From the NCBI RefSeq assembly GCF_000025685.1, contig NC_013964.1:90001-122000 (forward strand): DNA of 32,000 nucleotides, read 5' to 3'. A program made the translations under genes and the position numbers. Source of the stretch: Haloferax volcanii DS2. Lineage in GTDB: Archaea; Halobacteriota; Halobacteria; Halobacteriales; Haloferacaceae. Numbering within the stretch: position 1 is the stretch's first letter; each line of letters opens with the position of its first letter. Positions 7,256 to 30,597 of this stretch are shown piece after piece. The notes below the pieces were generated by a model. The model was not told where the DNA came from. It ran no database searches and saw only the letters and a program-made list of their open reading frames with translations.

Positions 7256-7279
7256 GTACGCGTACCCTCGCGGTGACCT

Positions 7280-7289
7280 ATCTTTATAC
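7280..7289. promoter_or_regulatory. Shared AT-rich TATA-like element of the divergent GH28 / sulfatase pair
   Basis: ATCTTTATAC is the only AT-rich word in the 56-bp gap. It is centred about 27 nt upstream of GTG 7312 (+) and about 30 nt upstream of ATG 7255 (-). Confidence 0.45.
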
Positions 7290-7311
7290 TACTGGTGGTC
7301 GGAGTTCGGCC

Positions 7312-8810: not shown

Positions 8811-8820
8811 TACTTTTATG
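8811..8820 (+). promoter_or_regulatory. TATA-like box of the enolase-superfamily gene
   Basis: TACTTTTATG is centred about 32 nt upstream of ATG 8848. The track's ATG 8818 lies inside this box, which argues for the 8848 start. Confidence 0.4.
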
Positions 8821-8847
8821 ACCGTTCCGCGTAACCGACTACCACGA

Positions 8848-12667: not shown

Positions 12668-12694
12668 CGTCTGGTTATAGGTGTTGGCACGGGG

Positions 12695-13717: not shown

Positions 13718-13719
13718 GG

Positions 13720-14724
13720 TTACTCCTCACCCACCGAGATGCGCGGGTCGATGAGCGTGTACGTGAGGTCGGCGATGAAGATGGCGGTCAGCGAAATCGC
13801 CGTGAACACGAGGAGCGTGCCCATCAACAGCGGGTAGTCTTGCGTCTTGACCGCCTCGAACATCAGGAGACCCATGCCCGGGTACGCGAAGACCTCCTCG
13901 ACGATGACGGCGCTGCTGAAGACGCCGGCGATGCCGATCATAAACTGCGTGTACATCGGGAGGATGGAGTTGTGCCCGAGGTACTGCGTGGCGATGCGGG
14001 TCTCGCGGAGCCCGCGAAGCTGCGCCACGCGGATGTAGTCCTCGCCGAGGACGCGAACCGCGTTCCCGCGCATGGCGAGCGCGCCGGAGGTCGCGAGCGC
14101 GCCCATCGAAATCGCCGGGAGCGCCGCGTGTTGCACGAGACTGAGCATGAACTCCGGATTGTACCCCGCGGCGATGCCCGAGCCGATTCGGCCGCCGGTC
14201 GGGAAGTAGTTGTTCTGGATGGCGAGGAAGTAGATGAGCACGACGCCGACGATGTAGTACGGAATCGAGTTGAGTCCGATGATGAGCGATGACACCGTGG
14301 AGTCGAACCGCGACTTCTCCCGGTAGGCCGTCATCACGCCGAGGAAGATGCTCAGCGAGTAGCCCAGCGCGAGCGCGTAGACGCTGATGAACATCGACCA
14401 CGGGATGCGCTGCATGATGAGCGTCGTGACCTCCTCGTTTTTGAAGAACGAGGTGCCGAGATCCTGCCGGAGAATCACGTCAGACGCGTAGTTGAAATAC
14501 TGTACGTGCATCGGCTGGTCCGGGTTCACGTTCGTGTAGAGCTGTATCATCCTGTTCAGTCGGTCGATATCGACGCTCCCGCCGCTCTGCGAGAGGATCA
14601 CGCTCCGCATCGCTTCCGTCGGGCCACCGGGCATGGCCTGGTACAGCAGAAACGAGACCGTCATCGTGACGAAAAACGTCAGTATCGCTTGCCCGAGACG
14701 CTTCAACAAATACTTTGGTGTCAT
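13720..14724 (-). CDS. ABC transporter permease, DppB/OppB type
   Basis: 334 aa. The N-terminus MTPKYLLKRLGQAILTFFVTMTVSFLLYQAMPGGP is typical of this type. Loop region GEDYIRVAQLRGLRETRIATQYLGHNSILP. Confidence 0.9.
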   Translation of the reverse strand: MTPKYLLKRLGQAILTFFVTMTVSFLLYQAMPGGPTEAMRSVILSQSGGSVDIDRLNRMIQLYTNVNPDQPMHVQYFNYASDVILRQDLGTSFFKNEEVTTLIMQRIPWSMFISVYALALGYSLSIFLGVMTAYREKSRFDSTVSSLIIGLNSIPYYIVGVVLIYFLAIQNNYFPTGGRIGSGIAAGYNPEFMLSLVQHAALPAISMGALATSGALAMRGNAVRVLGEDYIRVAQLRGLRETRIATQYLGHNSILPMYTQFMIGIAGVFSSAVIVEEVFAYPGMGLLMFEAVKTQDYPLLMGTLLVFTAISLTAIFIADLTYTLIDPRISVGEE

Positions 14725-14754
14725 TATTAATAGTTTGGCTTCTAGCGTGAGAGA

Positions 14755-14775
14755 GCTTAATTGTGGTGGTTAAGC
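14755..14775 (-). other. Intercistronic hairpin (GCTTAA-N9-TTAAGC) between SBP and permease genes
   Basis: 6-bp perfect arms at 14755-14760 and 14770-14775, in the 73-nt AT-rich gap after the SBP stop (14798). Confidence 0.3.
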
Positions 14776-14797
14776 CCGTCGAGGCTGCCGTCTCACC

Positions 14798-16654
14798 TCA
14801 CTGCGAGTTGGAGCTAATCCATCCGTTTTTGAAGGAGAACTCGCCCGGTCGGTTCGTGTTGAGTTCGTAGTCGTCGCCCGTCGGCATGGAGAAGTCCTGC
14901 GTGTCGCCCCAGTAGCCGGAGTCTTCCTCGACGAAGACGAAGTCGGGAAGCGCGTAGTTGAACCACTGGACGAGGTCGCGGGTCCGCTCTCTGACCTGCT
15001 CTGCGGACTCGGAGTTCGGCAGGTCGTTCATCAGCTGTGCGGGCTGAATCTCTTTGCCGCTGCCGGAGATTTCGGTCGCGCCGACCTCGCTCGGGATGGT
15101 CGTCGTAAAGGGCTTGCCCGTCGGGCCGGTCTCGTTCCCACTGGAGGGGTCACCGACCTCGATGCCGTAGAAGTTGTTCGAGAAGTACGCCGTCGGGTGC
15201 CACAGCGCCTTCGCGACGTGCCATATCCAGAAGATGTCCGCCTCGTACGTTTGGAGGCGCTGGTAGTAGTCGGTCGAGCTGACCGTGCTGATTTCGGTCT
15301 GGATGCCGAACGCGTTGAGGTGGTCGTTGAAGACCTTCGTCGCCTGCACCTGGGTGTTGTTGTTCTGCGTGAGGACGGTGAACGTGAAGGACTCGCCATC
15401 AGGGTCGACCCACGTCCCGTTCTCCTTGGTGTAGCCGGCGTCTTCGAGCAGCTGCGTCGCGGTTTCGAGATCCTTGCCGACCGGGTAGTCGATGAGCTGG
15501 TCGACGAAGTCCGAGCCGAGGTACTCCTCGTGAATCGTCGAGCGCAGCGCCGTCTGGTTCTCGGCGGGCGCGCCGACCGTTCCGGCCTGCCGCATCGCGG
15601 CGACCATCGACTCGAAGTCCACCGCGTTGACGATGGCGCGTCGGACGGGAAGCCTCGCGATGTGCTCGTTCTTGAAGTTGAACGTGAACTTCTGGGTGCG
15701 GAACCAGTTGAGCCGGTAGACGTTCTCGATGTTGTCCGGGTACCGGGACTGCTGGGACTCCGACATGAGTACGTCGGGGTTCATGTCGAGTTGGTCGTTC
15801 ACCGACAGCGACTCCACGTCGGAGGTCGTCTCGGGGATGATGCGGACGTTCGGGACGTCCGTCCGGCTCGCGTACGGGTGGTCTTCGAACTTCTCGAGGA
15901 CGGTCTCCGAGGAGTTGAAGCCGGTGACGCGGTACAGCGCGTTGCCGAGACCCTCGTCGATGAGCTGTTGGGTCGTGATGCTCATGTCGAGGAGGTCGCT
16001 CGTCACGCTCTCGCGCTCGCTCTCATTCGATGCCTCCTCGTAGCGGGTGAGGTATTCGCGGTAAATCGACCGCGGGGTGTTGACGAACGTCTCGGCGACG
16101 TTCGCCTTCATCAGGTTGGGCGAGACGGCCGTCTTGAACGTCCGCTCGATGGTGTAGTCGTCGACCAGCGTGTTGCTCTCGATGGGTGACTGCTCGGGCG
16201 ATTGCAGGCGGTCGATTTCGAGACCGATGTAGTAGTCTTCGGCCGTCAGGTCGTCGCCGTTCCACCACTTGAACCCCTCGGGGAACGTCAGCGTGAGCGT
16301 CCGCCCGTCGACGGTCATGTCTTCGAGCAGGTCGGGTCGGACCGTCCCGTCGGCGTAGCCGCGCGCGACTTCCTCGAACAGTTGGTCCTGCAGGGTGTGC
16401 GCGTAGTTGCCGAGGCTGTACCGGTTGAACTGCACGTCCGTCGCGGGTCGGCCCGCGGGGTAATCGAGGGTGTCGTCGGCGATGCTCGCGCCGCCCTCGG
16501 TGGTCGTGCCGCCGTCCGTGCCGTCCCCGGTACTGCCGTCTTCGGTCGTCTGCCCGGAACTATCGAAGCAGCCGGCCAGTCCAGCCGTGCCAGCCACCGC
16601 CCCGTACTTGATAAGGTCTCGTCTACTCCAGTTGGTTGAACGCTTTCCAGCCAT
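14798..16654 (-). CDS. ABC transporter substrate-binding lipoprotein, SBP family 5 (Dpp/Opp type), Tat-exported
   Basis: 618 aa with SRRDLIK twin-arginine motif, lipobox LAGC and a Thr/Gly/Asp/Ser linker. First gene of a five-gene SBP-permease-permease-ATPase-ATPase operon (16654 -> 10521). Confidence 0.9.
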   Translation of the reverse strand: MAGKRSTNWSRRDLIKYGAVAGTAGLAGCFDSSGQTTEDGSTGDGTDGGTTTEGGASIADDTLDYPAGRPATDVQFNRYSLGNYAHTLQDQLFEEVARGYADGTVRPDLLEDMTVDGRTLTLTFPEGFKWWNGDDLTAEDYYIGLEIDRLQSPEQSPIESNTLVDDYTIERTFKTAVSPNLMKANVAETFVNTPRSIYREYLTRYEEASNESERESVTSDLLDMSITTQQLIDEGLGNALYRVTGFNSSETVLEKFEDHPYASRTDVPNVRIIPETTSDVESLSVNDQLDMNPDVLMSESQQSRYPDNIENVYRLNWFRTQKFTFNFKNEHIARLPVRRAIVNAVDFESMVAAMRQAGTVGAPAENQTALRSTIHEEYLGSDFVDQLIDYPVGKDLETATQLLEDAGYTKENGTWVDPDGESFTFTVLTQNNNTQVQATKVFNDHLNAFGIQTEISTVSSTDYYQRLQTYEADIFWIWHVAKALWHPTAYFSNNFYGIEVGDPSSGNETGPTGKPFTTTIPSEVGATEISGSGKEIQPAQLMNDLPNSESAEQVRERTRDLVQWFNYALPDFVFVEEDSGYWGDTQDFSMPTGDDYELNTNRPGEFSFKNGWISSNSQ

Positions 16655-17104: not shown

Positions 17105-17566
17105 ATGGACAGAGGATTAGTACTCATCGAGAACACTGACTTACACGCGGACCTCCTCCGGGAGGCCAGAGAACACGCGCTCGGCGCGGACGCCGACCTC
17201 GTCCTCCTCGTCACGCTCACCGAAGACGAGTTCGAGGAGACCCAGGAGGTCCTCGACACCATCGGCGACGTCGAGCACACGTCGTACACCGAACAGGACG
17301 CGTTCAAGGGCGCGATGAACGACGCCGAGGAGGTCGCCCGGAAGGTCTTCGCGACCGACGACGAGGTGTCCTACGAAATCGTCCCGCGAATCGCCGCCGA
17401 GAAAGAGCGCGCCGAGACGGTCATCGAAGTCGCCGACGAGGAGGGCGCAGACCACGTGTTCATCCTCGGCCGGAAGCGGTCGCCGACCGGAAAGGCGCTG
17501 TTCGGCGACCTCGCGCAGTTCGTGATTCTCAACTTCGACGGCTACGTGACGCTTCACACCGAGTGA
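17105..17566 (+). CDS. Universal stress protein (UspA family)
   Basis: 153 aa with the typical C-terminal ATP-binding region ADHVFILGRKRSPTGKALFGDLAQFVILNFDGYV. TATA-like CTTAGATAAG lies at 17075-17084. Confidence 0.85.
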   Translation: MDRGLVLIENTDLHADLLREAREHALGADADLVLLVTLTEDEFEETQEVLDTIGDVEHTSYTEQDAFKGAMNDAEEVARKVFATDDEVSYEIVPRIAAEKERAETVIEVADEEGADHVFILGRKRSPTGKALFGDLAQFVILNFDGYVTLHTE

Positions 17567-17647: not shown

Positions 17648-18487
17648 CTACTCCGGCGGGCTGTCCCACTCCTCGCCGTCGTCCTGCGGGTGGTAGCCGA
17701 TCTGCGAGCGGGCGTGTTCGAGGTCGTACCACCGGCGCTGGTTGTCGCTCACGCCGCTGAAGATACCGAATTCGACGTTGTCGTCTTGCAGACAGCAGTC
17801 GATTTCGTGGGCGAAGTCGCGGCGGGACTGCCACATCGACTTCATGCGCCCGACGGTTTCCTCGTACTCGGCGCTCCCGCGTTCGAACTCGCCGTTCTCG
17901 ACGGCGGCCTCGGCGTCGCCGTAGGGGTGGTCGTACTCCGGCATCCGGACGCTGCACACCCGGAGGGCGTAGAACTGCTTGGGGTATTCGTAGTTCTCGA
18001 CGTAGTACCGACCCATGTCCTCGCCGTACGCCTTCGACGCGCCGTAAAACGAGTCGGGGCGGACGGGGTCCTCGTGGCCGATGACGAGTCCGTGACCCGG
18101 CTCATATATCTCGGGGGAGAACTCGTCCTCGTAGCCGCCCATGACGTGATTGGTCGAGAGGAAGACGAACGACTCGATTTCGTTCTCGCGGGCGACTTCG
18201 AGCGCGTTGTACATCCCGATGATGTTGGGCTCGAAGATGTCCTCCCACGTCCCGTCGGTGTAGGGGTACGCCGCCATGTGGACCATCGCGTCCTGCCCCG
18301 CCGCGGCGCCGTCGAGCGCGTCGTAGTCGGACACGTCGCCGACGACGGTGTCGTAGCCACCGTAGGGGTGGTCGTCGGGACGGTCGGAGCGGTTGAAGTA
18401 CGTGAAGTCGTAGGCGTCGTCGTCGTGCAGGTGGTCTATGACTGCGGTGCCGCACCGGCCATAGACGCCGGTCATCAAGACGTCCAT
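17648..18487 (-). CDS. NAD-dependent epimerase/dehydratase-fold SDR, uronate dehydrogenase (Udh)-like
   Basis: 279 aa with GxxGxxG (TGVYGRCGT) and YxxxK (YGASK). Blocks NIIGMYNALEVAR, LSTNHVMGGY, PVRPDSFYGASKAYGE, MWQSRRDFAHEI and SDNQRRWYDLEHARSQIGYHPQDD parallel, from memory, Agrobacterium Udh (NIIGLYNLYEAAR, SSNHTIGYY, PDGLYGVSKCFGE, TWFSHDDF, WWDNSHLGFLGWKPKDN). The fold call is firm; the substrate call is moderate. Confidence 0.8.
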   Translation of the reverse strand: MDVLMTGVYGRCGTAVIDHLHDDDAYDFTYFNRSDRPDDHPYGGYDTVVGDVSDYDALDGAAAGQDAMVHMAAYPYTDGTWEDIFEPNIIGMYNALEVARENEIESFVFLSTNHVMGGYEDEFSPEIYEPGHGLVIGHEDPVRPDSFYGASKAYGEDMGRYYVENYEYPKQFYALRVCSVRMPEYDHPYGDAEAAVENGEFERGSAEYEETVGRMKSMWQSRRDFAHEIDCCLQDDNVEFGIFSGVSDNQRRWYDLEHARSQIGYHPQDDGEEWDSPPE

Positions 18488-18510
18488 ACGAATCCACTCT
18501 GACCAAATCG

Positions 18511-18518
18511 TAATAAAT
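18511..18518 (-). promoter_or_regulatory. TATA-like box of the Udh-like gene
   Basis: The minus strand reads ATTTATTA, centred about 27 nt upstream of ATG 18487. Confidence 0.35.
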
Positions 18519-18662
18519 TGATGGGTGACCGTGACGTCCGACTTCGCTTCGGGTATCGCTTCGGCCCGCCCGTTCGGGTCACGAAGCCTGAATGCCGCGC
18601 ACCAGATGGACGACTCGCGGGCCCTCTCGCGCGTGAACGCCGGGTTCAGGCGTTGACGATGG

Positions 18663-18670
18663 GTTTATCA
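18663..18670 (+). promoter_or_regulatory. TATA-like box of the KdgD-like gene
   Basis: GTTTATCA is centred about 28 nt upstream of ATG 18695. It is immediately preceded by the inverted repeat AACGCC-N7-GGCGTT (18636-18654). Confidence 0.35.
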
Positions 18671-18694
18671 CGGTTGACTCAGATTGACTGTACC

Positions 18695-19633
18695 ATGCCA
18701 CTCGCAGACGACCGTGTACGCAGTCGTCTCCGTGGCGTCGCCGTCGGCTTGCTCACGCCGTTCGACGACGACCTGGAGATTCAACACGACAAACTCGAAG
18801 CGAACGCGAAGTCGCTTTCCGGCGACGGTATCTCGTCGTTCCTCGCGGCCGCGAACATCAGCGAATACCACTCCCTGTCCCAACAGGAGCGCGTCGACGT
18901 GACGGAGACGGCGGTCGACGCGCTCCCCGACAGCGCCTGCGTCCTCGCCGGCGTCGGCGGGTCGACGAAGGCCGCGACGGACCTGATGGAAGCCTACGAC
19001 CGCGTCGGCGTGGACGCCATGATGGTCATGCCGCCGGACCACACCTACGTCCACGAGCGGGGACTCATCCGCTACTACGAGAAACTCGACGCCGCGACCG
19101 ACACGCCGCTCGTTCCCTACGTCCGCGGCTTCGACCCCTCGGTCTCCTTCCTCCGCGACCTCTCGCGCATCGAGGGCGTCGTCGGCGTCAAGTACGCCAT
19201 CGAGGACCCGGTCAAACTCGGTTCCGCCGTCGCCGTCGCGGACGACGACGTGGTCTGGGTGGACGGCCTCGCGGAACCCTACGCCGTCTCGTTTTGGAAC
19301 GAGGGCATCGAGGGGTTCTCGGCGGGCGTCAGCAATTTCCGCCCGGAAATCGGCCTCGCGCTGTTCGAGGCGCTCACCGAGGAGAACTGGGAACGCGCCC
19401 GCGAGATTCGCGACCTGACGCTCCCGTTCCAAGCTCTCCGCGGCGAGACGGGAACCGACAACGACCTTCCCGGCGCGATAAGCGTCCCGATAGTGAAGAA
19501 GGGCCTCGAACTGGCCGGCCTGCACGGCGGGGAAGTCCGCGAGCCGATTCGGTCGCTGTCGGCCGACGACGAGCGCCGCGCCGAGGAACTGTACGAGGAA
19601 CTCGACGACGGCATCGCCCGCGTCATCGACTGA
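18695..19633 (+). CDS. Dihydrodipicolinate synthase/N-acetylneuraminate lyase family protein, 5-dehydro-4-deoxyglucarate dehydratase (KdgD)-like
   Basis: ORF 18518..19633 trimmed to MPLADDRVRSRLRGVAVGLLTPFDDD (the family-typical N-terminal strand). Also has SEYHSLSQQER, VGVDAMMVMPP, and VVGVKYAIED as the candidate Schiff-base Lys. The start is supported by TATA spacing. Confidence 0.85.
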   Translation: MPLADDRVRSRLRGVAVGLLTPFDDDLEIQHDKLEANAKSLSGDGISSFLAAANISEYHSLSQQERVDVTETAVDALPDSACVLAGVGGSTKAATDLMEAYDRVGVDAMMVMPPDHTYVHERGLIRYYEKLDAATDTPLVPYVRGFDPSVSFLRDLSRIEGVVGVKYAIEDPVKLGSAVAVADDDVVWVDGLAEPYAVSFWNEGIEGFSAGVSNFRPEIGLALFEALTEENWERAREIRDLTLPFQALRGETGTDNDLPGAISVPIVKKGLELAGLHGGEVREPIRSLSADDERRAEELYEELDDGIARVID

Positions 19634-19752
19634 CTCACCGACATCGACCCGAGCGCGCACCGACGACTCCGACCGCACCGATATCGACTGACCACGCTCA
19701 CCGCACCTGCCTGACGCTACCCGGCGACAGCCGTCGGAAGCACCCTACCCCA

Positions 19753-19757
19753 TTTTT
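19753..19757 (+). terminator. Oligo-T (T5) tract downstream of the KdgD-like gene
   Basis: cccatttttcgcc lies about 120 nt after stop 19633. Confidence 0.25.
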
Positions 19758-19929
19758 CGCCGTCTCGACGTTCCCTCGCTCCCTGTTGAGCCGTTTTCAC
19801 GTCTCACCGGCCCGCTCGTCTCCCACCGGACTCCCGGCCCGCACTAATCATAACACACCTTCAGCTCCGGCAGTTGAGCGGCCACATTCCTAGACTGACC
19901 GCATGAGGGCAGCGTCATACTCCATCTTG

Positions 19930-19944
19930 TTCGCCGGTGGGGAA
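19930..19944. promoter_or_regulatory. Imperfect dyad TTCGC-CGGTG-GGGAA (copy 1 of a 15-nt direct repeat)
   Basis: ttcgccggtggggaa matches ttccccggtggcgaa (19995-20009) at 13/15 positions, 65 bp apart. Both fit TTCCC-N5-GGGAA with one arm mismatch. Confidence 0.3.
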
Positions 19945-19994
19945 CGAACATCAGGCGAATCGTGCCCAATTATTCACTCTGGATGGGATTTGCG

Positions 19995-20009
19995 TTCCCC
20001 GGTGGCGAA
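19995..20009. promoter_or_regulatory. Imperfect dyad TTCCC-CGGTG-GCGAA (copy 2)
   Basis: See 19930-19944. The CCGGTGGC core also occurs at 28994-29001, upstream of the CUT1 SBP gene. A related CGGTGGCG occurs at 24824-24831, in the iclR/GH105 spacer. Confidence 0.3.
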
Positions 20010-20148
20010 TATTCGGATTTAGGCCTCTCTGTGGGCTCTGGATTGGGTTTAGGGGGGTTGGCGTTTTGGTCGGCTGTGCGTCACTCACGACGAACGCGCG
20101 AATTCGACGCGATATTCGCCCATATATTACAAGCATATGACTGTAATT

Positions 20149-20164
20149 TTCCCGCCTCGGGAAC
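20149..20164. promoter_or_regulatory. Dyad TTCCC-GCCTC-GGGAA(C), near-identical to the iclR-promoter dyad
   Basis: ttcccgcctcgggaac matches ttcccgcctggggaac (24738-24753) at 15/16 positions. Both follow a T-rich/TATA-like stretch (gtaatttt and tatatatttg). It lies about 120 nt upstream of the SGNH esterase start. Confidence 0.4.
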
Positions 20165-20276
20165 CGATGATGCCACTTCGGCGTCTGTCTCCGTCCAGCA
20201 CCGGCGCGCCCGTCGTCGCGCGTCGGTCGCCGGAGGTAGGGATAAGTAGGTGTGGCGTGTGCGTGACTCACACGGT

Positions 20277-21311
20277 ATGCAGCACGACGATATCCAGCAC
20301 GACGACGTTCAGTTCCACAACGTCAGGGCGCTCCAGCGGGTCAGACCGCACGAGGGACTTCGACTGCTCCGCGTTCCGGAGGCCGTCAGGAGCGGCCTGA
20401 ACACCGGCGCGCAGACGCGGATGTCTCACCCGGCGGGAACCGAGATTCGACTCGTCCCCGATGAGACGGTTCGAATCACGCTCTCCTCCGAGGAGCGAGA
20501 CAGCCTCGTTCGACCGTTCTGGGGAGACTTTCAGGCGACGGGCGAGGAGTTCACGCTCGGGCCGGAGCCGAAGACGGTCGAACTGTCTCCCCCGGAGTCG
20601 CTGTCCGACCTCGACCCGGCGGCGACCGGCGAGATGCGTTACGCGCCCGAGGTGTGCCGACTCGTCTTCCCCGGCGACCACCGCGGCGGCCACATCTACT
20701 ACCACGGCGTCGAGGGCGCGCGGCGGCCGCCGACCGCCGACGAGGTTCCGAGCCTCCGATACCTCGCGTACGGCACGTCGATTACCGAGGGCGAGGACCC
20801 GTCGGCGGAGATGCTCACGTACGTTAACCAGACGGCCCGGAGACTCGGTGCGGACCCGATAAATCTCGGCTCCTGCGGGACAGCCTACTGCGACCCCGCG
20901 ATGGCCGAGCACATCGCCGCCCGCGACGACTGGGACGTGGCGACGCTCTCGCTGTCGGTGAACATGGTCGGCCGATTCTCGCCCGACGAGTTCCGCGAGC
21001 GCGCCGCGGACATGGTCGAAACCGTCGCCGCGGCGAACCCGACCAAACCCGTCGCCTGCATCACGCTGTTCCCGCACGTGCGCGAGTACAAGCGCGACCA
21101 CGAGGAAGCGACGCTCTCCGAGACGTTCCGCCAGCACCTTCGTGACGTGGTTGACGAGTGCGGCTACGACAACGTCCACCTCGTGGAGGGCCCCGACCTC
21201 CTGCCGACCGCCAGCGGGATGACGACCGACCTCGTCCATCCCGGCGACGACGCGATGGTTCGCATCGGTGAGCGCCTCGCGCGCGAGCTCGAATCTCTCA
21301 TGGACGATTGA
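20277..21311 (+). CDS. SGNH/GDSL-family hydrolase (putative carbohydrate esterase) with N-terminal beta-sandwich-type domain
   Basis: ORF 20250..21311; start taken at ATG 20277. Block I YGTSITEG (Ser nucleophile) and block V DLVHPGD (DxxH). The roughly 160-aa N-terminal extra domain resembles that of esterases with accessory domains. No signal peptide. GGATAAGTA lies at 20240-20248, about 33 nt upstream. Confidence 0.85.
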   Translation: MQHDDIQHDDVQFHNVRALQRVRPHEGLRLLRVPEAVRSGLNTGAQTRMSHPAGTEIRLVPDETVRITLSSEERDSLVRPFWGDFQATGEEFTLGPEPKTVELSPPESLSDLDPAATGEMRYAPEVCRLVFPGDHRGGHIYYHGVEGARRPPTADEVPSLRYLAYGTSITEGEDPSAEMLTYVNQTARRLGADPINLGSCGTAYCDPAMAEHIAARDDWDVATLSLSVNMVGRFSPDEFRERAADMVETVAAANPTKPVACITLFPHVREYKRDHEEATLSETFRQHLRDVVDECGYDNVHLVEGPDLLPTASGMTTDLVHPGDDAMVRIGERLARELESLMDD

Positions 21312-21409
21312 CCGGGATATGCGCGACTCAGACGCTCTCGTAGTCGAATTTTCCGAACGAAATCTCCGCGAGCGTAACACCGAAGCACCCCCCTGTTCGA
21401 TGGACGTGT

Positions 21410-22318
21410 ATGACCGTCGCCGCAAATCTGGGCTACATGCTCGGGGTGCTCTGCCTCGGGGCGCTAGCGAAGCGTCTCGGCCTCCTCGACAGCGGCCGCC
21501 GCGACAAACTCACGTTCTTCGCGTTCGCCTTCGCGCTCCCCGCGCTCGTGTTCACCTCGACGTACGACCAGCCGATTCGCGAAGTTATCGAGCCGACGCT
21601 CGTGTTGGGCTTTTGGCTCGTCCTCTTTACGATGCTCGCCGTCGGCTGGGTCGTCCACCGGCGGGTGTCGCCCGACTCGGTTCGCAGTGTCGCCATCGTC
21701 CAGTCGTACTACTCGAACCTCGGCTTCCTCGGGCTCCCGCTCGTCGATTCGACGTTCGGTTCGCTGGCGTCTGCGAAGGCGGCCGTCATTCTCGGCATCG
21801 GCGCGCTCACCCACGTCCCGCTCACTATCACGGTCCTCGTGCTCGTCAACGGCGCTGACGTGTCGTTCAAAGAGGAGTTCATCGGCGTGCTCAAGACGCC
21901 GGTCATTCCGGCGCTCGTGTTGGGGCTCGCCTTCTCCGGGCTCGGCCTCGGCGTCCCCGGTGTCCTTCTGACGGGGCTCGACGCGCTCTCCTCGCTCGCG
22001 CTCCCCGTGGCGCTGCTCTCCATCGGCGCGTCGCTCACGATTTCCACCGAGTCGTTCGACTTTCGCACCGTCGGGGCCGTCGTCGGCAGCAAAGTCGTCC
22101 TGATGCCGCTTCTCGCCTTCGCCGTCTTCTCGACGTTCGCGTCGAGTTGGTCGACGGTCCAAGCCGGCGTGACGATGCTCGCGACGCCGACCGCCGTCTC
22201 GTCGTTCATCTACGCGAACGAACTCGGCGGCGACGCCGACCTCGCGTCGATGAACGTGTTCGCGACCACCGCCGTCTCGGTCGCCACCCTGTTCGTCGTC
22301 CTCCAGTTCCTCCTTTGA
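21410..22318 (+). CDS. AEC (auxin efflux carrier) family membrane transporter
   Basis: 302 aa with about 10 hydrophobic spans and two-lobed architecture. Sequence character is that of the Mem_trans/AEC family (LGLLDSGRRDKLTFFAFAFALPALVF ... LPVALLSIGASL). Confidence 0.88.
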   Translation: MTVAANLGYMLGVLCLGALAKRLGLLDSGRRDKLTFFAFAFALPALVFTSTYDQPIREVIEPTLVLGFWLVLFTMLAVGWVVHRRVSPDSVRSVAIVQSYYSNLGFLGLPLVDSTFGSLASAKAAVILGIGALTHVPLTITVLVLVNGADVSFKEEFIGVLKTPVIPALVLGLAFSGLGLGVPGVLLTGLDALSSLALPVALLSIGASLTISTESFDFRTVGAVVGSKVVLMPLLAFAVFSTFASSWSTVQAGVTMLATPTAVSSFIYANELGGDADLASMNVFATTAVSVATLFVVLQFLL

Positions 22319-22458
22319 GGCGGCGGCGGCTCGTCGATACCAGTCCGAACCTCGCGAATTCGCTTCGCTCACACCTTGCGACGGCCACGAGCGCGCGGCG
22401 GCCATCCGCGCTCGCCATGAGAAGCTTACTTGGTGATGGGTGTGCATGGCTAGGTCGA

Positions 22459-23910
22459 ATGTCGAGAACCTACGGTAACTTCATCGACGGCGAATGGACA
22501 GATTCCCAGTCGGGAGAGACGTTCGAAGTGACGAACCCCGCGGCGGCCGGCGAAGTCGTCAGCGTCCCCCCGGCGTCCTCCGAAGCGGACGTCGAGGCGG
22601 CGCTCGACGCGGCCGTCGCCGCGCAGGACGAGTGGGCGTCGACGCCCGGTCCGTCCCGTGGCGCGGTGCTCCGCGAGGCCGGCAACAACCTCGAAGCCCG
22701 GAAGGAGGAGGCGACCGAAGTGCTCGTCCGCGAGGAGGGCAAGACGCGCTCCGAGGCGGGCGGCGAAGTACAGCGCGCCATCGACATCTTCCACTACTAC
22801 GGCGCGAAGGCGCGGGACTTCGGCGGCACCGTCAAGTCTGCGAGCGCCCCCGGCAAGGACCTCTACACGAAGCACGAACCCCTCGGCACGGTCGCGCTCA
22901 TCACGCCGTGGAACTACCCCATCGCCATCCCGGTCTGGAAGCTCGCCCCGGCGCTCGCGGCCGGTAACACCGCGGTCCTCAAGCCGGCGTCCGAAGCGCC
23001 GGGCGTCGTCTCCATCGTCCTCGAATGTCTCGACGATGCGGGACTCCCGGCCGGCGTGGCGAACACCATCACCGGCTCCGGGAGCGAGGTCGGCGGCCCG
23101 CTCATCGAGAGCGAGCGCATCGACGGCGTCTCCTTTACCGGCAGCACCGCCGTGGGGACGATGGTCGCCGAGACGGCCGCGGTCGACCTCAAGCGCGTCC
23201 AGTGTGAGATGGGCGGCAAGAACCCGACCGTCGTGATGCCCAGCGCGGACATCGAGGCGGCCGCCGAGACCGTCGGCGTCGGCGCGTTCGGCACGACCGG
23301 CCAGTCGTGTACGGCCACCTCGCGCGCCATCGTCCACGAGGACGTGTACGACGAGTTCGTCGCGGCCGTCTCCGACTACGCCGAGTCGCTCGTCGTCGGC
23401 GACGGACTCGACGACCCCGACATGGGCCCGCACGTCTCCGAGAACGAACTGTCCTCGACGCTCGAATACATCGACATCGGCTCCTCGGAGGGCGCGACGC
23501 TCGAAGCCGGTGGCAGCCGACTCTCCGGCGACGACTACGACGACGGCTACTTCGTCGAGCCGACCGTGTTCTCCGGCGTCGAAAACGACGCTCGTATCGC
23601 TCAAGAGGAGATTTTCGGTCCCGTCCTCGCGGTCGTCAAGACCGACTCCTTCGAGGACGCGCTCGACCTCGCCAACGACGTTGACTACGGGCTGTCGGCC
23701 AGCATCGTCACGCAGGACCTCAGCGAGGGCAAGCGCTTCGTCAACGAGGTCGAAGCGGGCGTCGCGAAAATCAACGAGAAGACGACCGGTCTCGAACTCC
23801 ACGTCCCCTTCGGCGGCTACAAGGACTCGTCCACTAACACGTACCGCGAGCAGGGCGACGCCGGCCTCGACTTCTTCTCGTCGGTGAAGACCATCTACGA
23901 GAACTACTGA
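22459..23910 (+). CDS. NAD(P)-dependent aldehyde dehydrogenase, 2-oxoglutarate (alpha-ketoglutarate) semialdehyde dehydrogenase-like
   Basis: ORF 22147..23910 trimmed to MSRTYGNFIDGEWTDS (canonical ALDH N-terminus). The upstream 104 codons are Arg-rich and overlap the AEC gene. Catalytic contexts are EMGGKNP (Glu) and GQSCTATSR (Cys), with cofactor site FTGSTAVG. Confidence 0.9.
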   Translation: MSRTYGNFIDGEWTDSQSGETFEVTNPAAAGEVVSVPPASSEADVEAALDAAVAAQDEWASTPGPSRGAVLREAGNNLEARKEEATEVLVREEGKTRSEAGGEVQRAIDIFHYYGAKARDFGGTVKSASAPGKDLYTKHEPLGTVALITPWNYPIAIPVWKLAPALAAGNTAVLKPASEAPGVVSIVLECLDDAGLPAGVANTITGSGSEVGGPLIESERIDGVSFTGSTAVGTMVAETAAVDLKRVQCEMGGKNPTVVMPSADIEAAAETVGVGAFGTTGQSCTATSRAIVHEDVYDEFVAAVSDYAESLVVGDGLDDPDMGPHVSENELSSTLEYIDIGSSEGATLEAGGSRLSGDDYDDGYFVEPTVFSGVENDARIAQEEIFGPVLAVVKTDSFEDALDLANDVDYGLSASIVTQDLSEGKRFVNEVEAGVAKINEKTTGLELHVPFGGYKDSSTNTYREQGDAGLDFFSSVKTIYENY

Positions 23911-23929
23911 GCCGCGGGCCTCCGCGCGC

Positions 23930-24703
23930 TCAGGAGAACTTCGTGTTCAGTTCGATGACGTTCGCCGCGCTTCGGACGTAGTCCGCGAGTTCGCCGTGCA
24001 GGCGGTCCTCGGTGAACCGGCTCGACGGGCCGGTGATGCTAATCGCGCCGAGGATTGTCTCGTCGTTCTTGACCGGCGCAGAGACGCAGCGCAGACCGTT
24101 GATGTTCTCCTCGTCGTCGATGCCGTACCCTTGCTCGCGGATGGTTTCGAGCTCCTCGAACAGCTCCTCCGGACTGGTGATGGTGTTCGCCGTCTTGGGC
24201 TCGTACTCCATCGCGGCCGCGATTTCCTCGATGCGCTCGGGCGGCAGGTACGCCAGAATCGTCTTGCCCAGCGACGTGGAGTACATCGGCTGTTGGGTCC
24301 CCACCCGCGACAGCGTCTCGACGGCGTGTTCCCCCTGCGCCTTGTGGAGGTACGAGACCTTTCCGTACTCCTCGACGCCGAACTGGACGATTTCGCCCGT
24401 CTCCTCGGCCAGCGAGTCGACCTCTTTTTGAACGATGTCGAAGTTGCCTATCTGGTCGCGGACGTGCGAAGCCACGTCGAGAAACCGCAGGCCCAGCCGG
24501 TAGCCGTCGCCCTCTCGGACGATGACGCGCCGCTCTTCGAGCGTTCGGAGGTGGCTGTGGACCGTGCTCTTCGAGTGGCCGAGCTCGTCGGCAATTCGCG
24601 TCACGCCGATGCCCGCCTCCTCCTGGAGGTGGTCGATGATATTGAACGCTATCTGGACCGAGCGGATTGTTCGGCCGGGGCGTTTGTTCGGTGGGGAGCT
24701 CAT
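23930..24703 (-). CDS. IclR-family transcriptional regulator
   Basis: ORF 23930..24952 trimmed to MSSPPNKRPGRTIRSVQIAFNIIDHL. It has a winged-HTH (GVTRIADELGHSKSTVHSHLRTLEERRVIV) plus an IclR effector domain (MYSTSLGKTILAY, NGLRCVSAPV, GAISITGP). TATA spacing supports the start at 24703. Confidence 0.92.
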   Translation of the reverse strand: MSSPPNKRPGRTIRSVQIAFNIIDHLQEEAGIGVTRIADELGHSKSTVHSHLRTLEERRVIVREGDGYRLGLRFLDVASHVRDQIGNFDIVQKEVDSLAEETGEIVQFGVEEYGKVSYLHKAQGEHAVETLSRVGTQQPMYSTSLGKTILAYLPPERIEEIAAAMEYEPKTANTITSPEELFEELETIREQGYGIDDEENINGLRCVSAPVKNDETILGAISITGPSSRFTEDRLHGELADYVRSAANVIELNTKFS

Positions 24704-24727
24704 GGTGTGGTAGTCGAACCAGAGCCG

Positions 24728-24736
24728 TATATATTT
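24728..24736 (-). promoter_or_regulatory. TATA box of the iclR gene
   Basis: tatatattt (minus strand AAATATATA) is centred about 29 nt upstream of ATG 24703. Confidence 0.45.
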
Positions 24737-24737
24737 G

Positions 24738-24753
24738 TTCCCGCCTGGGGAAC
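24738..24753. promoter_or_regulatory. Dyad TTCCC-GCCTG-GGGAA(C); extended form GTTCCC-N5-GGGAAC; candidate IclR operator
   Basis: Perfect 6-bp arms at 24737-24742 and 24748-24753. It abuts the upstream side of the iclR TATA box (-34 to -50 from the iclR start). A 15/16 match lies at 20149-20164. Confidence 0.4.
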
Positions 24754-24890
24754 GTATCGGCTGCGACGAACGAGTACCCCCGGCTCCGGACTGGCTGACC
24801 GACTGGCCCGCGCGGCCGCCTTCCCGCGGTGGCGCGTCGCCATGGGATACATTTTTCATCCCTGCACGTCTTCGTGTGGGTACTGTACCC

Positions 24891-25958
24891 ATGCCAGCAG
24901 ACGAGCTTACACCAGTCCAGCGCGCCGCGTCGTATCTCCGGTCGTTGGACATCGACGGTCAATCGTGGATTACCGGCGTCGCCATCAACGGCCTGCTCGC
25001 CGAGGGCGGAGACGAGTCGGTCGAGCGCGCGAAGCACTTCGTCGACACCGCGGTGGCGACCCAGAACGACGCCGGGCAGTTGAGCTACGGCCCGAGCTAC
25101 CCAATTGAGGTTTTCAGCCACGGCCGCGAGTACGAGGCGAGCTGGGAGCTGACCGTCAAGAAGTGCATGAACACGAACAACAGCACCGCCATCGGTCACA
25201 GCGTCCTCGACTTCTACGACCGCACGGGCGAGGACCGCTACCTCGACGCGGCCGAACGCGCCTACGAATCGCTTCTCTCCTTCGAGCGGACCGAAGACGG
25301 CGGCATCCCTCACCACGACCCCGAACTCGCGGGCATCAAGTCGCTGTGGATCGACTCCGTCTACATGATGTGCCCGTTCCTCGCGCGCTACGGCGCGGCC
25401 GCGGGCGACGCCGACGCCTTCGACGAGGCGGTCGAGCAGATTCTGATTCACGCCGCGCACCTCCGCGACGGCCACACGGGGCTGTTCCGCCACATCTGGG
25501 TCGAACAGCCGAACCACTACCCGCAGGGCGCGTTCTGGGCGCGCGGCAACGGGTGGGCCGCCGCCGCCTCGGCGGACGTGCTCGAACGGCTCCCCGAGGA
25601 CCACCCGAAGCGCGACGACCTCCTCGACCTGTTCCGGTCGCACTGCGAGGCGCTCCTTCCGCTCCAAGACGGTAGCGGTTTCTGGCACAACCTCGTCGAC
25701 GACCCGCACACGCCGCTCGAATCGTCGGGGACGCTCATGTTCGCCTACGCGTTCGCCCGCGGCATCGACCTCGGCATCCTCGATGCGGAGACCTACCGCC
25801 GACCCGCCGAAGACGGGCTCGCAGCCGTCTCTCGCGTCGTCGGCGAGGAGGGCGCGGTCAACCGCGTCGCCGGCCCGCCGGGCGGCCCCGAGGCTCCGCT
25901 GACGGACACGCCTTACGGACAGGGCTGGTTCCTGATGGCCGCGGCCGCGCTCGACTGA
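24891..25958 (+). CDS. Glycoside hydrolase family 88/105 protein (unsaturated glucuronyl/rhamnogalacturonyl hydrolase), cytoplasmic
   Basis: ORF 24735..25958 trimmed to MPADELTPVQRAASYL. Family blocks of the (alpha/alpha)6 barrel: LWIDSVYMMCPFLARYG, FWARGNGWAAA, GFWHNLVDD, ESSGTLMFAYAF. No signal peptide. Confidence 0.88.
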   Translation: MPADELTPVQRAASYLRSLDIDGQSWITGVAINGLLAEGGDESVERAKHFVDTAVATQNDAGQLSYGPSYPIEVFSHGREYEASWELTVKKCMNTNNSTAIGHSVLDFYDRTGEDRYLDAAERAYESLLSFERTEDGGIPHHDPELAGIKSLWIDSVYMMCPFLARYGAAAGDADAFDEAVEQILIHAAHLRDGHTGLFRHIWVEQPNHYPQGAFWARGNGWAAAASADVLERLPEDHPKRDDLLDLFRSHCEALLPLQDGSGFWHNLVDDPHTPLESSGTLMFAYAFARGIDLGILDAETYRRPAEDGLAAVSRVVGEEGAVNRVAGPPGGPEAPLTDTPYGQGWFLMAAAALD

Positions 25959-26058: not shown

Positions 26059-27156
26059 ATGACTTACCACGCAGGCATCATCGGCACGGGCGGCATCGCA
26101 GGGATGGGCATCCTCGGCATGCACGACGAGGAGGCCATCGGCAGAGAGAAAATCGACGCGAGCCACGCGGGCGGGTACGCCGCGACCGACGACATCGAAC
26201 TCGTCGCCGTCGCAGACGTGGACGAGTCGAAACTGGACACCTTCGGGGAGGCGTGGGACATCCCCGCCGACCGCCGGTACGTCGGCCACGAGGCGATGCT
26301 CGAAGCTGAGGACCTCGACGCGGTGTCGGTCTGCACGCCGTCGTTCCTCCACCGCGACCACGTCGTCTACGCCGCGCGCTCCGCGGCCGACCCCTCGGTC
26401 GTCTGGTGCGAGAAACCCATCGCGTCGGCCGTCAGCGACGCCGAGGAAATGGTCGCCGTCTGCGACGACACCGACACGGAACTCGTCGTCAACCACTCGT
26501 TCCGGTTCACGGACAAGCTCCGTCGGCTCCGCGACCTCGTCCGCGATGAGGGTATCCTCGGCGACGTGAAGTCCGTGAGCGCGCAGTACCGCATGGAACT
26601 CATGCGGAACTCCACGCACGTCCTCGACACCCTCGTCTACCTCCTCGACGCGCGGGCCTCGCGGGTGAGCGGCCACATCACCGGCGAGAACGAGGCGCTC
26701 GACGCGCTGGACGCCACGGAGTCGGTCGTCGACGCCGGCGGCGGCGGGCACGTCGTCATGGACGACGGCACGTTCGTCACCGTGGACTGCACGATTCCGC
26801 GCGACGTCTCCTCGATGACGCTGAGTTTCATCGGCACCGAGGGCAAACTCTACATGAACAACGACGACGGCGAGTGGCGCTACTGGTCGCTCGAAGACGG
26901 CGAACACGTCGAGCGGTCGCTCCCCGGCATCGAGGGCGCGTGGACGTGGGAATCGGACTACAAGGGGTCGTTCGCCAACGCGGCGGCCCACGTACAGGAA
27001 CTCCTCGGCGGCGACGCCGAAAACTACTCGCCCGGCGTCGCGGCGACCCGCTCGCTCGAAATCATCGTCGGGTTCTACCTCTCGCACTACACCGATTCGA
27101 CGGTCGATATCCCGCTTCCGGGGCCGCTCCGGGAGGTCCCTATCACGTCGTGGTGA
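26059..27156 (+). CDS. Gfo/Idh/MocA-family NAD(P)-dependent oxidoreductase (putative sugar dehydrogenase)
   Basis: 365 aa with N-terminal Rossmann GIIGTGGIAGMG and the family EKP motif (VWCEKPIA). The C-terminal alpha/beta domain is present. Confidence 0.9.
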   Translation: MTYHAGIIGTGGIAGMGILGMHDEEAIGREKIDASHAGGYAATDDIELVAVADVDESKLDTFGEAWDIPADRRYVGHEAMLEAEDLDAVSVCTPSFLHRDHVVYAARSAADPSVVWCEKPIASAVSDAEEMVAVCDDTDTELVVNHSFRFTDKLRRLRDLVRDEGILGDVKSVSAQYRMELMRNSTHVLDTLVYLLDARASRVSGHITGENEALDALDATESVVDAGGGGHVVMDDGTFVTVDCTIPRDVSSMTLSFIGTEGKLYMNNDDGEWRYWSLEDGEHVERSLPGIEGAWTWESDYKGSFANAAAHVQELLGGDAENYSPGVAATRSLEIIVGFYLSHYTDSTVDIPLPGPLREVPITSW

Positions 27157-27696: not shown

Positions 27697-27999
27697 TCAG
27701 ATCATCCGGTAGACTTCGTCCATCCAACTGTCGTCGGTCTCGACGGTGATGCCGCTCATGACCTCTGCCCAGTCGGCTTGCGCCTCGCTGTTGTCCATTA
27801 CCTCTTGGATGGCCTCCGGGTCGTCGACTTCCATGAAGCCGAAAACGTGGCCGTCTTTCTCGAAGACGCTGTACGTTTGCAGGCCGGCGTCGGAGTCCAA
27901 GTAGGCGGATTCGAGCGCCTCGGGGACGTTCTCGTGTTTCGTTCGGTACTCTTCTCGCTTGCCGTCTTTAATCTCCAGGTGGAACGCGATTCGCGCCAT
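27697..27999 (-). CDS. rhaM: L-rhamnose mutarotase
   Basis: 100 aa. MARIAFHLEIKDGKREEYRTKHENVPEALESAYLDSDAGLQTYSVFEKDGHVFGFMEVDD aligns by eye with E. coli RhaM ([57 protein letters not shown]). Confidence 0.88.
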   Translation of the reverse strand: MARIAFHLEIKDGKREEYRTKHENVPEALESAYLDSDAGLQTYSVFEKDGHVFGFMEVDDPEAIQEVMDNSEAQADWAEVMSGITVETDDSWMDEVYRMI

Positions 28000-28078: not shown

Positions 28079-28948
28079 ATGATAGATACCCACACCCACG
28101 CGTGGGGTGCCGCGAGCCCGGAACACCCGTGGACCAACGGCCCCATCTTGGACCTCGTGGACAGCTTCGACGTACACACCGTCTACACCGCCGAGCGCCT
28201 GCTCGCCGACATGGACCGAAACGGCGTGGACGAGGCGGTCGTCGTGGGCTACCCTATCTGCGACTGGACGGACAACTGGTACACCCGACGGGTCGCCGCC
28301 GAGTACGACCGACTCCACGGCATCGTGATGCTCGACCCCTTCGCCGACGACGCGGTCGAGCGTCTCGACCGCTGTATGGAGACCGACGGCGTCCTCGGCT
28401 TCCGCCTCGGCGCGGCCTGCCCGTACGATCGCATGTGGGAGACGTTCGACCCGAGCGTGACGTGGCTCCGAGAGAGCGTCGAGGAGACCGCGTTCTGGGA
28501 GGCCGCGGTCGACCACGACGCGACCGTCCAGATTCTCTGCGACCACGGCCAACTCGACCAGGCGCTCGAACTCGTCGAGGCGTATCCCGAACTCACCTAC
28601 CTGTTCGACCACTTCGCCCACGCCGGCCCCGAAACCCCCACCGACGAGGGGACGTTCGGCCGGTTCGCCGACCTCGCGGAACACGACTCGGTCGCGGTGA
28701 AGGTCTCGGAAATTGTCCACATGTCCGACTCGGCGTTTCCCTACGCCGACATGCACGACCACGTCCGGTGGCTCCTCGACACCTTCGGTCGCGAGCGGGT
28801 CGTCTGGGGCTCCGACTACCCCAACGTCAGCGACGTCGCCAGCTACGCCGAGGCGTGTAACTGGCTCAAGCAGGTCGACTCGTTATCGAAGGCCGACCGG
28901 TCGTGGCTGACCGAGAAGTCGTTCCGGCGGCACGTCGACCTCGGCTGA
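28079..28948 (+). CDS. Amidohydrolase-2 family (PF04909-like) metal-dependent hydrolase; sugar-acid lactonase or aldarolactone isomerase candidate
   Basis: 289 aa with an N-terminal IDTHTHAW (HxH metal site), later DHFAH, and WGSDYP (Asp). The size and motifs fit the L-rhamnono-/L-fucono-lactonase group. Confidence 0.85.
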   Translation: MIDTHTHAWGAASPEHPWTNGPILDLVDSFDVHTVYTAERLLADMDRNGVDEAVVVGYPICDWTDNWYTRRVAAEYDRLHGIVMLDPFADDAVERLDRCMETDGVLGFRLGAACPYDRMWETFDPSVTWLRESVEETAFWEAAVDHDATVQILCDHGQLDQALELVEAYPELTYLFDHFAHAGPETPTDEGTFGRFADLAEHDSVAVKVSEIVHMSDSAFPYADMHDHVRWLLDTFGRERVVWGSDYPNVSDVASYAEACNWLKQVDSLSKADRSWLTEKSFRRHVDLG

Positions 28949-30539: not shown

Positions 30540-30597
30540 CGATGCGACTCGAACCGTCGCTCGAACGACGGCGGCCCAACGGCGGTGAGTTACGACC

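Follow-up and report, generated by a model that had tools for sequence, protein, structure and literature searches.

The locus on pHV3

The window analysed here, a stretch of 32,000 nucleotides from plasmid pHV3 of Haloferax volcanii (contig C4, positions 90,001-122,000), contains the gene of a GH105-type unsaturated uronyl hydrolase whose predicted product is 4-deoxy-L-threo-5-hexosulose uronate (DKI), and the question considered is how the cell might dispose of this compound. The hydrolase gene is found among genes for a uronate dehydrogenase (Udh)-like extended short-chain dehydrogenase/reductase (SDR), a DHDPS-family enzyme resembling 5-keto-4-deoxyglucarate dehydratase (KdgD), an aldehyde dehydrogenase (ALDH) and a Gfo/Idh/MocA oxidoreductase (Gfo). 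This setting had been pointed out in a preliminary description of the DNA and is confirmed here, the Gfo gene beginning about 100 bp beyond the region so described. From it the description had proposed an oxidative shunt, in which DKI is turned into 5-keto-4-deoxyglucarate and KduI and KduD are bypassed. Taken together, the predicted gene products (GH28, GH105, esterase, sulfatase and ABC importers; Table 1) characterise the window as a cytoplasmic island for the import and disassembly of rhamnose/uronic-acid oligosaccharides.

Genes were chosen by GC3 codon bias and then annotated by sequence searches against Pfam, NCBIfam and PDB, the genome completeness being 99.95%. The NCBIfam cut-offs were 750 bits for NF052305, 278 for PRK03620, 374 for TIGR03249, 339 for TIGR01832 and 400 for Azf. 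Comparisons were made with 395 Halobacteria genomes, sampled evenly and representing 91 genera. Coordinates without a prefix are window positions; C4 and C1 denote pHV3 and the chromosome of H. volcanii (genome G000), and other numbers beginning with G, C or L are our handles for genomes, contigs and loci.

Table 1. Genes and candidate operators of the pHV3 window, in window coordinates.
Feature	Position	Strand	Evidence
SMP-30/gluconolactonase-family lactonase; candidate aldarolactone hydrolase	4093-4962	+	PF08450, E 1.6e-40; single copy in genome; probably HVO_B0083 (locus tag from PMC3404096)
HbpS/GlcG-like (DUF336) protein	5047-5499	-	PF03928, E 5e-38
GH28 hydrolase, galacturonidase or rhamnogalacturonidase type	5639-7255	-	PF00295; NCBIfam PglB 226 bits, below cut-off
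Sulfatase	7249-8739	+	PF00884, E 3e-44
Enolase-superfamily acid-sugar dehydratase, galactarate dehydratase III-like	8818-9978	+	PDB 1rvk/4hcd/4hch/4hcl/4mmw, E 6e-110
Opp/Dpp-type ABC importer: two ATPases, two permeases, family-5 binding protein	10521-16654	-	Pfam
Universal stress protein (Usp)	17105-17566	+	PF00582; conserved Udh companion in haloarchaeal uronate clusters (synteny)
Udh-like extended SDR	17648-18487	-	PDB 3rft, E 4e-19; NCBIfam Azf 168 bits, below cut-off
KdgD-like DHDPS-family enzyme	18695-19633	+	PRK03620 148.5 bits, TIGR03249 127 bits, below cut-offs
Palindrome array TTCCC-N5-GGGAA, three copies	19930-20163		Sites at 19930, 19995 and 20149; one copy exact, two copies with a single mismatch
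SGNH/GDSL esterase; probable acetyl esterase for glycan	20250-21311	+	PF14606/PF13472
AEC-family membrane transporter	21410-22318	+	PF03547
Predicted alpha-ketoglutarate semialdehyde (2,5-dioxovalerate) dehydrogenase, ALDH	22459-23910	+	NF052305, 814 bits
IclR-family regulator, divergent from GH105	23930-24703	-	PF01614/PF09339
Palindrome TTCCCGCCTGGGGAA, candidate operator, IclR-GH105 intergenic region	24738-24752		
GH105-type unsaturated uronyl hydrolase	24891-25958	+	PF07470, 208 bits; no signal peptide
Gfo/Idh/MocA oxidoreductase	26059-27156	+	PF01408
L-rhamnose mutarotase, start of L-rhamnose (rhc) cluster	27697-27999	-	PF05336, E 3e-15; probably HVO_B0104 (locus tag from PMC11023807)
Amidohydrolase_2 lactonase, probably L-rhamnonolactonase	28079-28948	+	PF04909; conserved with rhamnose genes in L042-L047
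CUT1-type sugar ABC importer of the rhamnose cluster, running past the window end	29073-32000	+	Pfam

A probable bacterial-type oxidative uronate pathway

The pHV3 stretch very probably holds the core of an oxidative, non-phosphorylative hexuronate pathway of the bacterial type. In this pathway the Udh-like SDR would oxidise the uronate to the aldarolactone, the lactonase together with the galactarate dehydratase III-like enolase of the window, or else a Gci-like enolase encoded elsewhere on pHV3, would lead to 5-keto-4-deoxy-glucarate, the KdgD-like enzyme would form alpha-ketoglutarate semialdehyde (alpha-KGSA), and the ALDH would yield 2-oxoglutarate. The GH28 hydrolase is the predicted source of saturated galacturonate.

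The ALDH exceeds the cut-off of NF052305, the haloarchaeal 2,5-dioxovalerate dehydrogenase equivalog (814 vs 750 bits), and shows 64% identity to the copy in the pentose cluster (C4:43203-44648), which we take to be XacF (HVO_B0039). It is best read as the terminal alpha-KGSA dehydrogenase, the expected last step after KdgD. The best solved relatives of the Udh-like SDR are uronate dehydrogenases (3rft, E 4e-19), and its YxxxK and S-T-N-H (SxNH) motifs align with AtUdh. Its best NCBIfam match is the haloarchaeal glucose-6-phosphate dehydrogenase Azf (168 bits vs a cut-off of 400) and its nearest paralogue in the genome is an Azf-like gene (43%); it is closer to Azf than to the bacterial Udh. 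The carboxylate-binding Arg174 of AtUdh was considered as a marker of uronate specificity and given up, since the Azf-like and AraDH-like paralogues carry that Arg too. The SDR is a candidate uronate 1-dehydrogenase.

For the DHDPS-family protein the two KdgD models are the best NCBIfam matches (dapA reaches 79 and nanA 31-49 bits). It also matches PDB 3d0c/3e96 (E 1e-36), the Schiff-base Lys and the Tyr are kept, the GxxGE motif is changed to NISEY, and a 75%-identical paralogue is found at C4:401723-402625. Unlike the bacterial KdgD it remains under the curated cut-offs, and we regard it as a candidate 5-keto-4-deoxyglucarate dehydratase/decarboxylase. The step from the aldarolactone or aldarate to 5-keto-4-deoxy-glucarate is assigned to the lactonase and two enolases by family membership only. 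The PDB entries matched by the enolase of the window are presumably A. tumefaciens GalrD-III (galactarate dehydratase III). The Gci-like enolase (C4:397960-399090) lies on a second pHV3 island together with a Usp gene and the second KdgD, and is 74.5% identical to a Halopelagius protein matching A. tumefaciens Gci (4ggb/4hpn, 6e-76).

The same enzyme families and the same logic are known from the oxidative galacturonate/glucuronate pathway of A. tumefaciens and Pseudomonas, and the Udh-Gci-KdgD gene order of that pathway is retained in many haloarchaea. The set on pHV3 differs in its archaeal host and in being divided between two islands. The bacterial pathway takes saturated uronates only, and entry of the GH105 product is a new proposal. 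The window set also resembles the Xac (pentose) and Rhc (L-rhamnose) pathways, which belong to the same organism and replicon, the rhc genes abutting the window, and which are built alike from a sugar 1-dehydrogenase, a lactonase, an enolase-type dehydratase, XacF and IclR regulators. These two pathways are experimentally established for neutral sugars, whereas a uronate branch and a role of GH105 or Gfo are undescribed in the literature searched. Our literature search yielded neither an account of how H. volcanii degrades uronates nor a report of its growth on galacturonate or glucuronate or of their conversion to 2-oxoglutarate. Even without a shunt, the locus apparently represents an undescribed complete bacterial-type oxidative uronate pathway in an archaeon.

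The GH105-type hydrolase and the missing KduI/KduD route for its product

The hydrolase gene is the only PF07470 gene of the H. volcanii genome. The best PDB matches of the protein are members of GH105 (3k11, 3qwt, YteR 1nc5, YesR 2gh4 and, for ulvan, 4ce7), the motifs WIDSVYMM (W-x-D-x-x-x-M, with the catalytic Asp) and WARGNGW align, and the closest named protein is "glycosyl hydrolase family 88 [Haloferax volcanii]" (98% identity). The enzyme is predicted to release DKI. A 699-aa protein encoded on pHV3 (G000:C4:370745-372844), which matches the PDB pectate lyase 9buj (E 2e-19) and an annotated Halarchaeum pectate lyase (54%), is a probable secreted pectate lyase, and its presence makes unsaturated substrates plausible. 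Its DUF1349 match is weak, and the Pfam pectate lyase model PF00544 gave no match, thereby missing this protein.

The preliminary description had recognised no KduI, KduD, KdgK or KdgA in the window, and family searches of the window open reading frames bear this out: none falls in the KduI, PfkB (KdgK) or Eda (KdgA) families or is an SDR of the classical KduD type. Genome-wide, KduI (PF04962), UxaC and the RpiB/DhuI-type isomerase each gave 0 matches, and the KduD equivalog TIGR01832 matched 18 SDRs, none over the cut-off (best 196 vs 339 bits). PF07470 (GH88/105) genes occur in 52 of the 395 sampled genomes and 25 of the 91 genera, while KduI was found in none of the 395, in a search where the control genomes did give matches. 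By the sampled genomes, DKI has no known outlet in the haloarchaeal class.

The later enzymes of the canonical KduI/KduD/KdgK/KdgA route are represented by family, with five PfkB kinases and three Eda-family aldolases on the chromosome and pHV4 and none on pHV3; by the literature these serve glucose and galactose catabolism. H. volcanii shares with the canonical route the starting compound and these kinase and aldolase families, and differs from it in lacking KduI and any KduD over the cut-off, its kinases and aldolases lying in glucose and galactose clusters on other replicons. The genome check suggested in the preliminary description is divided in its outcome, the first two enzymes being missing and relatives of the last two being present.

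Proposed entry of DKI by oxidation at C1

Among the fates considered, the most likely one for DKI, if still somewhat short of probable, is oxidation at C1 to 5-keto-4-deoxy-D-glucarate, by which it would join the ordinary pathway at KdgD. The chemistry of this step, as proposed earlier, is sound, since DKI keeps C2 and C3 of D-galacturonate or D-glucuronate and oxidation of C1 consequently gives 5-dehydro-4-deoxy-D-glucarate. The first candidate for the oxidation would be the Gfo enzyme, encoded 100 bp behind GH105, and the second the Udh-like SDR. The third would be the KGSADH-like ALDH, with a second omega-aldehyde 2-keto acid as its substrate. The ALDH had been listed on equal terms in the preliminary description and is downgraded here: by NF052305 it is an alpha-KGSA dehydrogenase, a step needed by any KdgD route, and best read in this way it is not a free candidate for a DKI oxidase.

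The preliminary description knew of no precedent for the shunt, and this can no longer be upheld for the class of reaction, since an oxidative pathway exists for a sister compound. In Flavobacterium sp. UMI-01 the SDR FlRed oxidises DEHU to 2-keto-3-deoxy-glucarate (KDGR), and the RraA-family protein FlDet converts KDGR to alpha-KGSA, which is then oxidised to 2-oxoglutarate (FlRed, FlDet, FlDeg; Nishiyama et al. 2021, PMC8563752). The proposal for H. volcanii follows exactly this logic, in which a 4-deoxy-5-keto-uronate is oxidised at its C1 aldehyde. The differences are that the Flavobacterium substrate is the L-erythro diastereomer from alginate, whereas H. volcanii would handle the L-threo compound from pectin, ulvan or glycosaminoglycan; that the Flavobacterium oxidase is a classical-SDR DEHU reductase working in reverse; and that its dehydratase is of the RraA family, where H. 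volcanii would need the DHDPS-type KdgD. H. volcanii has one RraA-like gene only, which is chromosomal (G000:C1:537014-537454) and unlinked to the window; it lies about 1.2 kb from an Azf-like SDR gene (C1:534906-535784). A literature search for DKI together with alpha-KGSA found no paper.

The first place of Gfo among the candidates comes from its gene context. Orthologues with 70-97% identity are present in 76 of the 395 genomes, comprising 37 of the 52 PF07470-positive genomes vs 39 of the 343 others, and in 25 of the 52 an orthologue and a GH88/105 gene are no more than 10 kb apart, across 10 genera and two GH88/105 subfamilies, one of them a distant GH88-like subfamily of roughly 410 aa. 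Gfo is the most consistent neighbour of GH88/105 genes, and by this context it is the best candidate for acting on DKI. Its best solved relative is the aldose-aldose oxidoreductase PDB 5a02 (E 2.5e-15), an enzyme type that both oxidises and reduces C1 of aldoses; an ESM Atlas look-up gave generic family names only. In a Halarchaeum plasmid the gene is part of a DUF362-FAH-Gfo-ALDH operon beside genes for an aldo-keto reductase (AKR), a cupin, a pectate lyase, two enolases and Udh- and KdgD-like proteins. A role as L-rhamnose dehydrogenase is unlikely, an MDR dehydrogenase accompanying the rhamnonate dehydratase in all loci.

Further indications come from the palindrome TTCCC-N5-GGGAA, which has six exact copies in the 4.0-Mb genome, all but one on pHV3. 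With at most one mismatch the window has four sites vs 0.81 expected (none of 100 shuffles reached four), three of them upstream of the GDSL-AEC-ALDH genes and one in the IclR-GH105 intergenic region. Across ten orthologous loci (nine from Haloferax and one from g2) the arms are conserved and the spacer is variable, and in other genera the palindrome accompanies orthologues of the window IclR next to KdgD genes. It is a candidate operator, probably that of the window IclR, through which this regulator would probably co-control GH105-Gfo and the esterase-transporter-ALDH operon; the shared palindrome suggests one regulon. The second KdgD island likewise has a triple array of the palindrome, which lies upstream of a gene for a ThuA-like protein (G000:C4:404860-405208).

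Udh and KdgD follow the hydrolases as well. KdgD-like orthologues are found in 83 of the 395 genomes and are enriched among the PF07470-positive ones (34 of 52), as are the Udh-like orthologues (77 of 395 and 29 of 52). In three genera of the Natrialbaceae-type family (f5), KdgD-GH105-Udh triplets adjoin rhamnose genes, and their Udh and KdgD copies form a clade of their own in both maximum-likelihood trees (support 100/99 and 96/90); two of these genomes hold a separate Udh-Gci-KdgD set in addition. The triplet copies look like a pair specialised for the GH105 context. It is possible, though slightly less likely than the reading for H. volcanii itself, that haloarchaea at large convert 4-deoxy-5-keto-uronate from GH88/105 enzymes and lyases to 2-oxoglutarate by a dedicated dehydrogenase and KdgD, under an IclR regulator with the TTCCC-N5-GGGAA operator, the dehydrogenase being Gfo or, in Natrialbaceae, the Udh paralogue.

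A number of observations weigh against entry of DKI at KdgD. The full ordinary galacturonate route explains the Udh, KdgD and ALDH genes around GH105, and with that route complete in the gene set their co-location with GH105 needs no shunt. What stands of the proposed bypass is its chemistry, the missing KduI/KduD route and the linkage of GH105 to the Gfo, Udh and KdgD genes; most of the gene set is accounted for without it. The commonest haloarchaeal arrangement is Udh-(Usp)-Gci-like-KdgD with no GH105 nearby, which is the ordinary pathway, and the Udh and KdgD of H. volcanii belong to the general clade of the trees and not to the GH105-linked one. The KdgD-like protein of the window falls short of both KdgD cut-offs (148.5 vs 278 and 127 vs 374 bits), no palindrome was found in the Udh-KdgD intergenic region, and 11 of the 41 genomes with a strong GH105 have no KdgD-like gene at E<=1e-60. 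The Natrialbaceae clusters, at first sight without Gci and with GH105 only, were rejected as proof of a shunt. The Halostagnicola cluster has a GH28 gene and, slightly further on, a KGSADH-like ALDH gene, the GH28 gene standing just beyond the 20-kb frame, and a divergent Gci-like gene belongs to the G216 cluster, so that the case for GH105 as sole source of uronate fails there.

Gfo itself is also found in settings that fit poorly. In genus g35 the modules consist of GH105, LarA-like, Gfo and AKR genes, and two g35 genomes have DapA as their sole DHDPS-family member; without a KdgD-type gene, Gfo cannot feed KdgD in these two, and there at least the GH105 product goes elsewhere. In Salinarchaeum and Natrarchaeobius the orthologues follow a 1rvk-like (GalrD-III-like) enolase gene, amid fucosidase and sulfatase genes or in other surroundings, a position that would fit a dehydrogenase of a saturated sugar. 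There is no report of a haloarchaeon growing on pectin (PMC9726719, PMC12343721). With these points taken into account, C1 oxidation is still the most economical reading of how DKI enters metabolism, and we hold to it tentatively.

Alternative fates of DKI

The main rival to the shunt, and a serious one although unlikely in itself, is a reductive or redox-isomerising route, in which Gfo reduces the C1 aldehyde of DKI to 2-keto-3-deoxy-L-galactonate and Udh, KdgD and ALDH serve saturated uronates only. Elsewhere Gfo would then act with an AKR, a LarA-like epimerase, an SDR and a FAH-family hydrolase. The reduced product could enter the neighbouring 6-deoxyhexose diketo-hydrolase pathway (4-dehydrogenase and FAH hydrolase) and give pyruvate and L-glycerate, or it could be converted to KDG for KDG kinase and KDPG aldolase of the semiphosphorylative Entner-Doudoroff pathway. 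The g35 modules speak for this, as similar ones are found in Halopelagius and some of the genomes have no KdgD-type gene, and so does the Halarchaeum locus, where AKR, the DUF362/LarA-like gene and FAH share one operon region with Gfo. The two-way chemistry of the best solved relative of Gfo, the position of GH105-Gfo directly upstream of the rhc cluster with its FAH hydrolase and KDR-dehydrogenase SDR, and the PfkB kinases and Eda aldolases of the genome are likewise in line with reduction. However, no orthologous AKR is near the H. volcanii locus, the best AKR matches being chromosomal and 50-57% identical, and the LarA-like gene of H. volcanii is 258 kb away. The nearness of Gfo to a KGSADH-like ALDH here and in Halarchaeum, as well as the candidate operator common to GH105-Gfo and the ALDH operon, points instead to a route that forms alpha-KGSA. 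We know of no precedent for a reductive DKI route, which also weighs against it.

A second alternative, which we consider improbable, is that DKI is not assimilated. The window would then be a horizontally acquired and incompletely functional island, DKI being excreted or unspecifically detoxified and Gfo acting on some neutral sugar, and GH105 would merely unblock the ends of oligosaccharides, thereby freeing rhamnose and saturated galacturonate. Haloarchaea with polysaccharide lyase or GH28 genes failed to grow on pectin, polygalacturonate and rhamnogalacturonan (PMC9726719), and the Gfo orthologues in 39 genomes without any PF07470 gene and in a fucosidase-rich locus are in agreement with such a view. 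On the other hand, the window genes are all intact with normal codon bias, Gfo and GH88/105 genes lie within 10 kb of each other far more often than chance would give (25 genomes, 10 genera), and conservation of the candidate operator ahead of GH105-Gfo speaks for a function that has been maintained. Compounds of the DKI type are reactive, and leaving DKI unprocessed would be costly.

Very improbable, finally, is that the DHDPS-family protein is an aldolase (e.g. for 2-keto-3-deoxy-L-galactonate, as in the fungal galacturonate route), with the ALDH oxidising the released glyceraldehyde and no alpha-KGSA pathway at all, since the missed KdgD cut-offs, an equal closeness to true DapA structures and to A. 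tumefaciens KdgD 4ur7 (E 4e-14) and the NISEY motif are set against KdgD models that are still the best NCBIfam matches by a wide margin, an ALDH over the curated 2,5-dioxovalerate dehydrogenase cut-off and orthologues standing in the bacterial-type Udh-Gci-KdgD order in many haloarchaea.

Further observations on Gfo, GH88/105 and the neighbouring genes

The Gfo protein is always 365 aa long, with 70-82% identity between haloarchaeal families, and its gene is often located on plasmids or small contigs; such conservation points to strong constraint or to a recent spread. Next to Gfo, Salinarchaeum and Natrarchaeobius encode an enolase of the same 1rvk-like subgroup as the window enolase; it was rejected as an orthologue of the latter, being 34% identical only. 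In at least 10 genomes a gene of a remote GH88-like family (about 400-480 aa; PF07470 E 1e-11 to 1e-16) lies 3-10 kb from a Gfo orthologue (e.g. G317:C4:33501, G315:C3:205077, G325:C3:54624 and G302:C32:113992). Beside GH105/Gfo in genus g35 and Halopelagius (L045, L048-L052) there is a protein of 449-458 aa, 83-89% conserved, with weak DUF362 and Lar_N (LarA-like) matches, and the H. volcanii copy of it is found in a distant pectin island (G000:C4:374393-375769; L079 8393-9769).

An aldehyde:ferredoxin oxidoreductase, 87-89% conserved, adjoins the GH105-linked Udh in L042 (12135-13805), L043 and L081 (Halostagnicola larsenii NZ_CP007056.1, 9070-11110), and in the annotated Halostagnicola record a SAMP1 ubiquitin-like gene stands next to it. 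This enzyme might serve as another aldehyde oxidase, acting on DKI or alpha-KGSA.

The Halobacterium-wangiae-like locus L039 (G015:C1:1995000-2014999) has three GH88/105 paralogues, 43-48% identical, with a KGSADH-like ALDH and an HpcH/HpaI lyase. It was considered as support for a path from DKI through keto-deoxyglucarate to GarL and set aside, as the context is of the CoA type and the lyase may be a CoA-ester lyase. The surrounding genes (CoA-transferase III, acyl-CoA dehydrogenase, glyoxalase family and EamA transporter) do not look glycan-related, and the L039 paralogues may do something else.

Directly downstream of the window the L-rhamnose cluster continues with the ABC importer, MDR dehydrogenase, rhamnonate dehydratase, IclR, FAH hydrolase and SDR genes. 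The HbpS/GlcG-like gene has 68-72% identical orthologues near Udh/KdgD clusters in several haloarchaeal families (L042, L043, L047, L074). At their longest starts the sulfatase and the divergent GH28 reading frames share 7 bp (7249-7255), and an obvious signal peptide was seen in neither protein; a cytoplasmic sulfatase would require a maturation system. In orthologous Haloferax plasmids the RefSeq annotation carries generic names only.

Significance

About one in eight of the sampled haloarchaeal genomes has unsaturated uronyl hydrolases and none has KduI, which raises the question of how archaea deal with the reactive product of these enzymes and of polysaccharide lyases. If the proposed C1 oxidation is true, carbon derived from pectin, ulvan or glycosaminoglycan would reach 2-oxoglutarate without input of ATP or NAD(P)H, in parallel to the recently found alginate DEHU route, and a function would be assigned to a very conserved orphan Gfo/Idh/MocA family. 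It would be the first archaeal pathway for unsaturated uronates and, for the L-threo compound DKI, the first route by oxidation. The host, H. volcanii, is a genetically tractable model, so that the question is directly testable.

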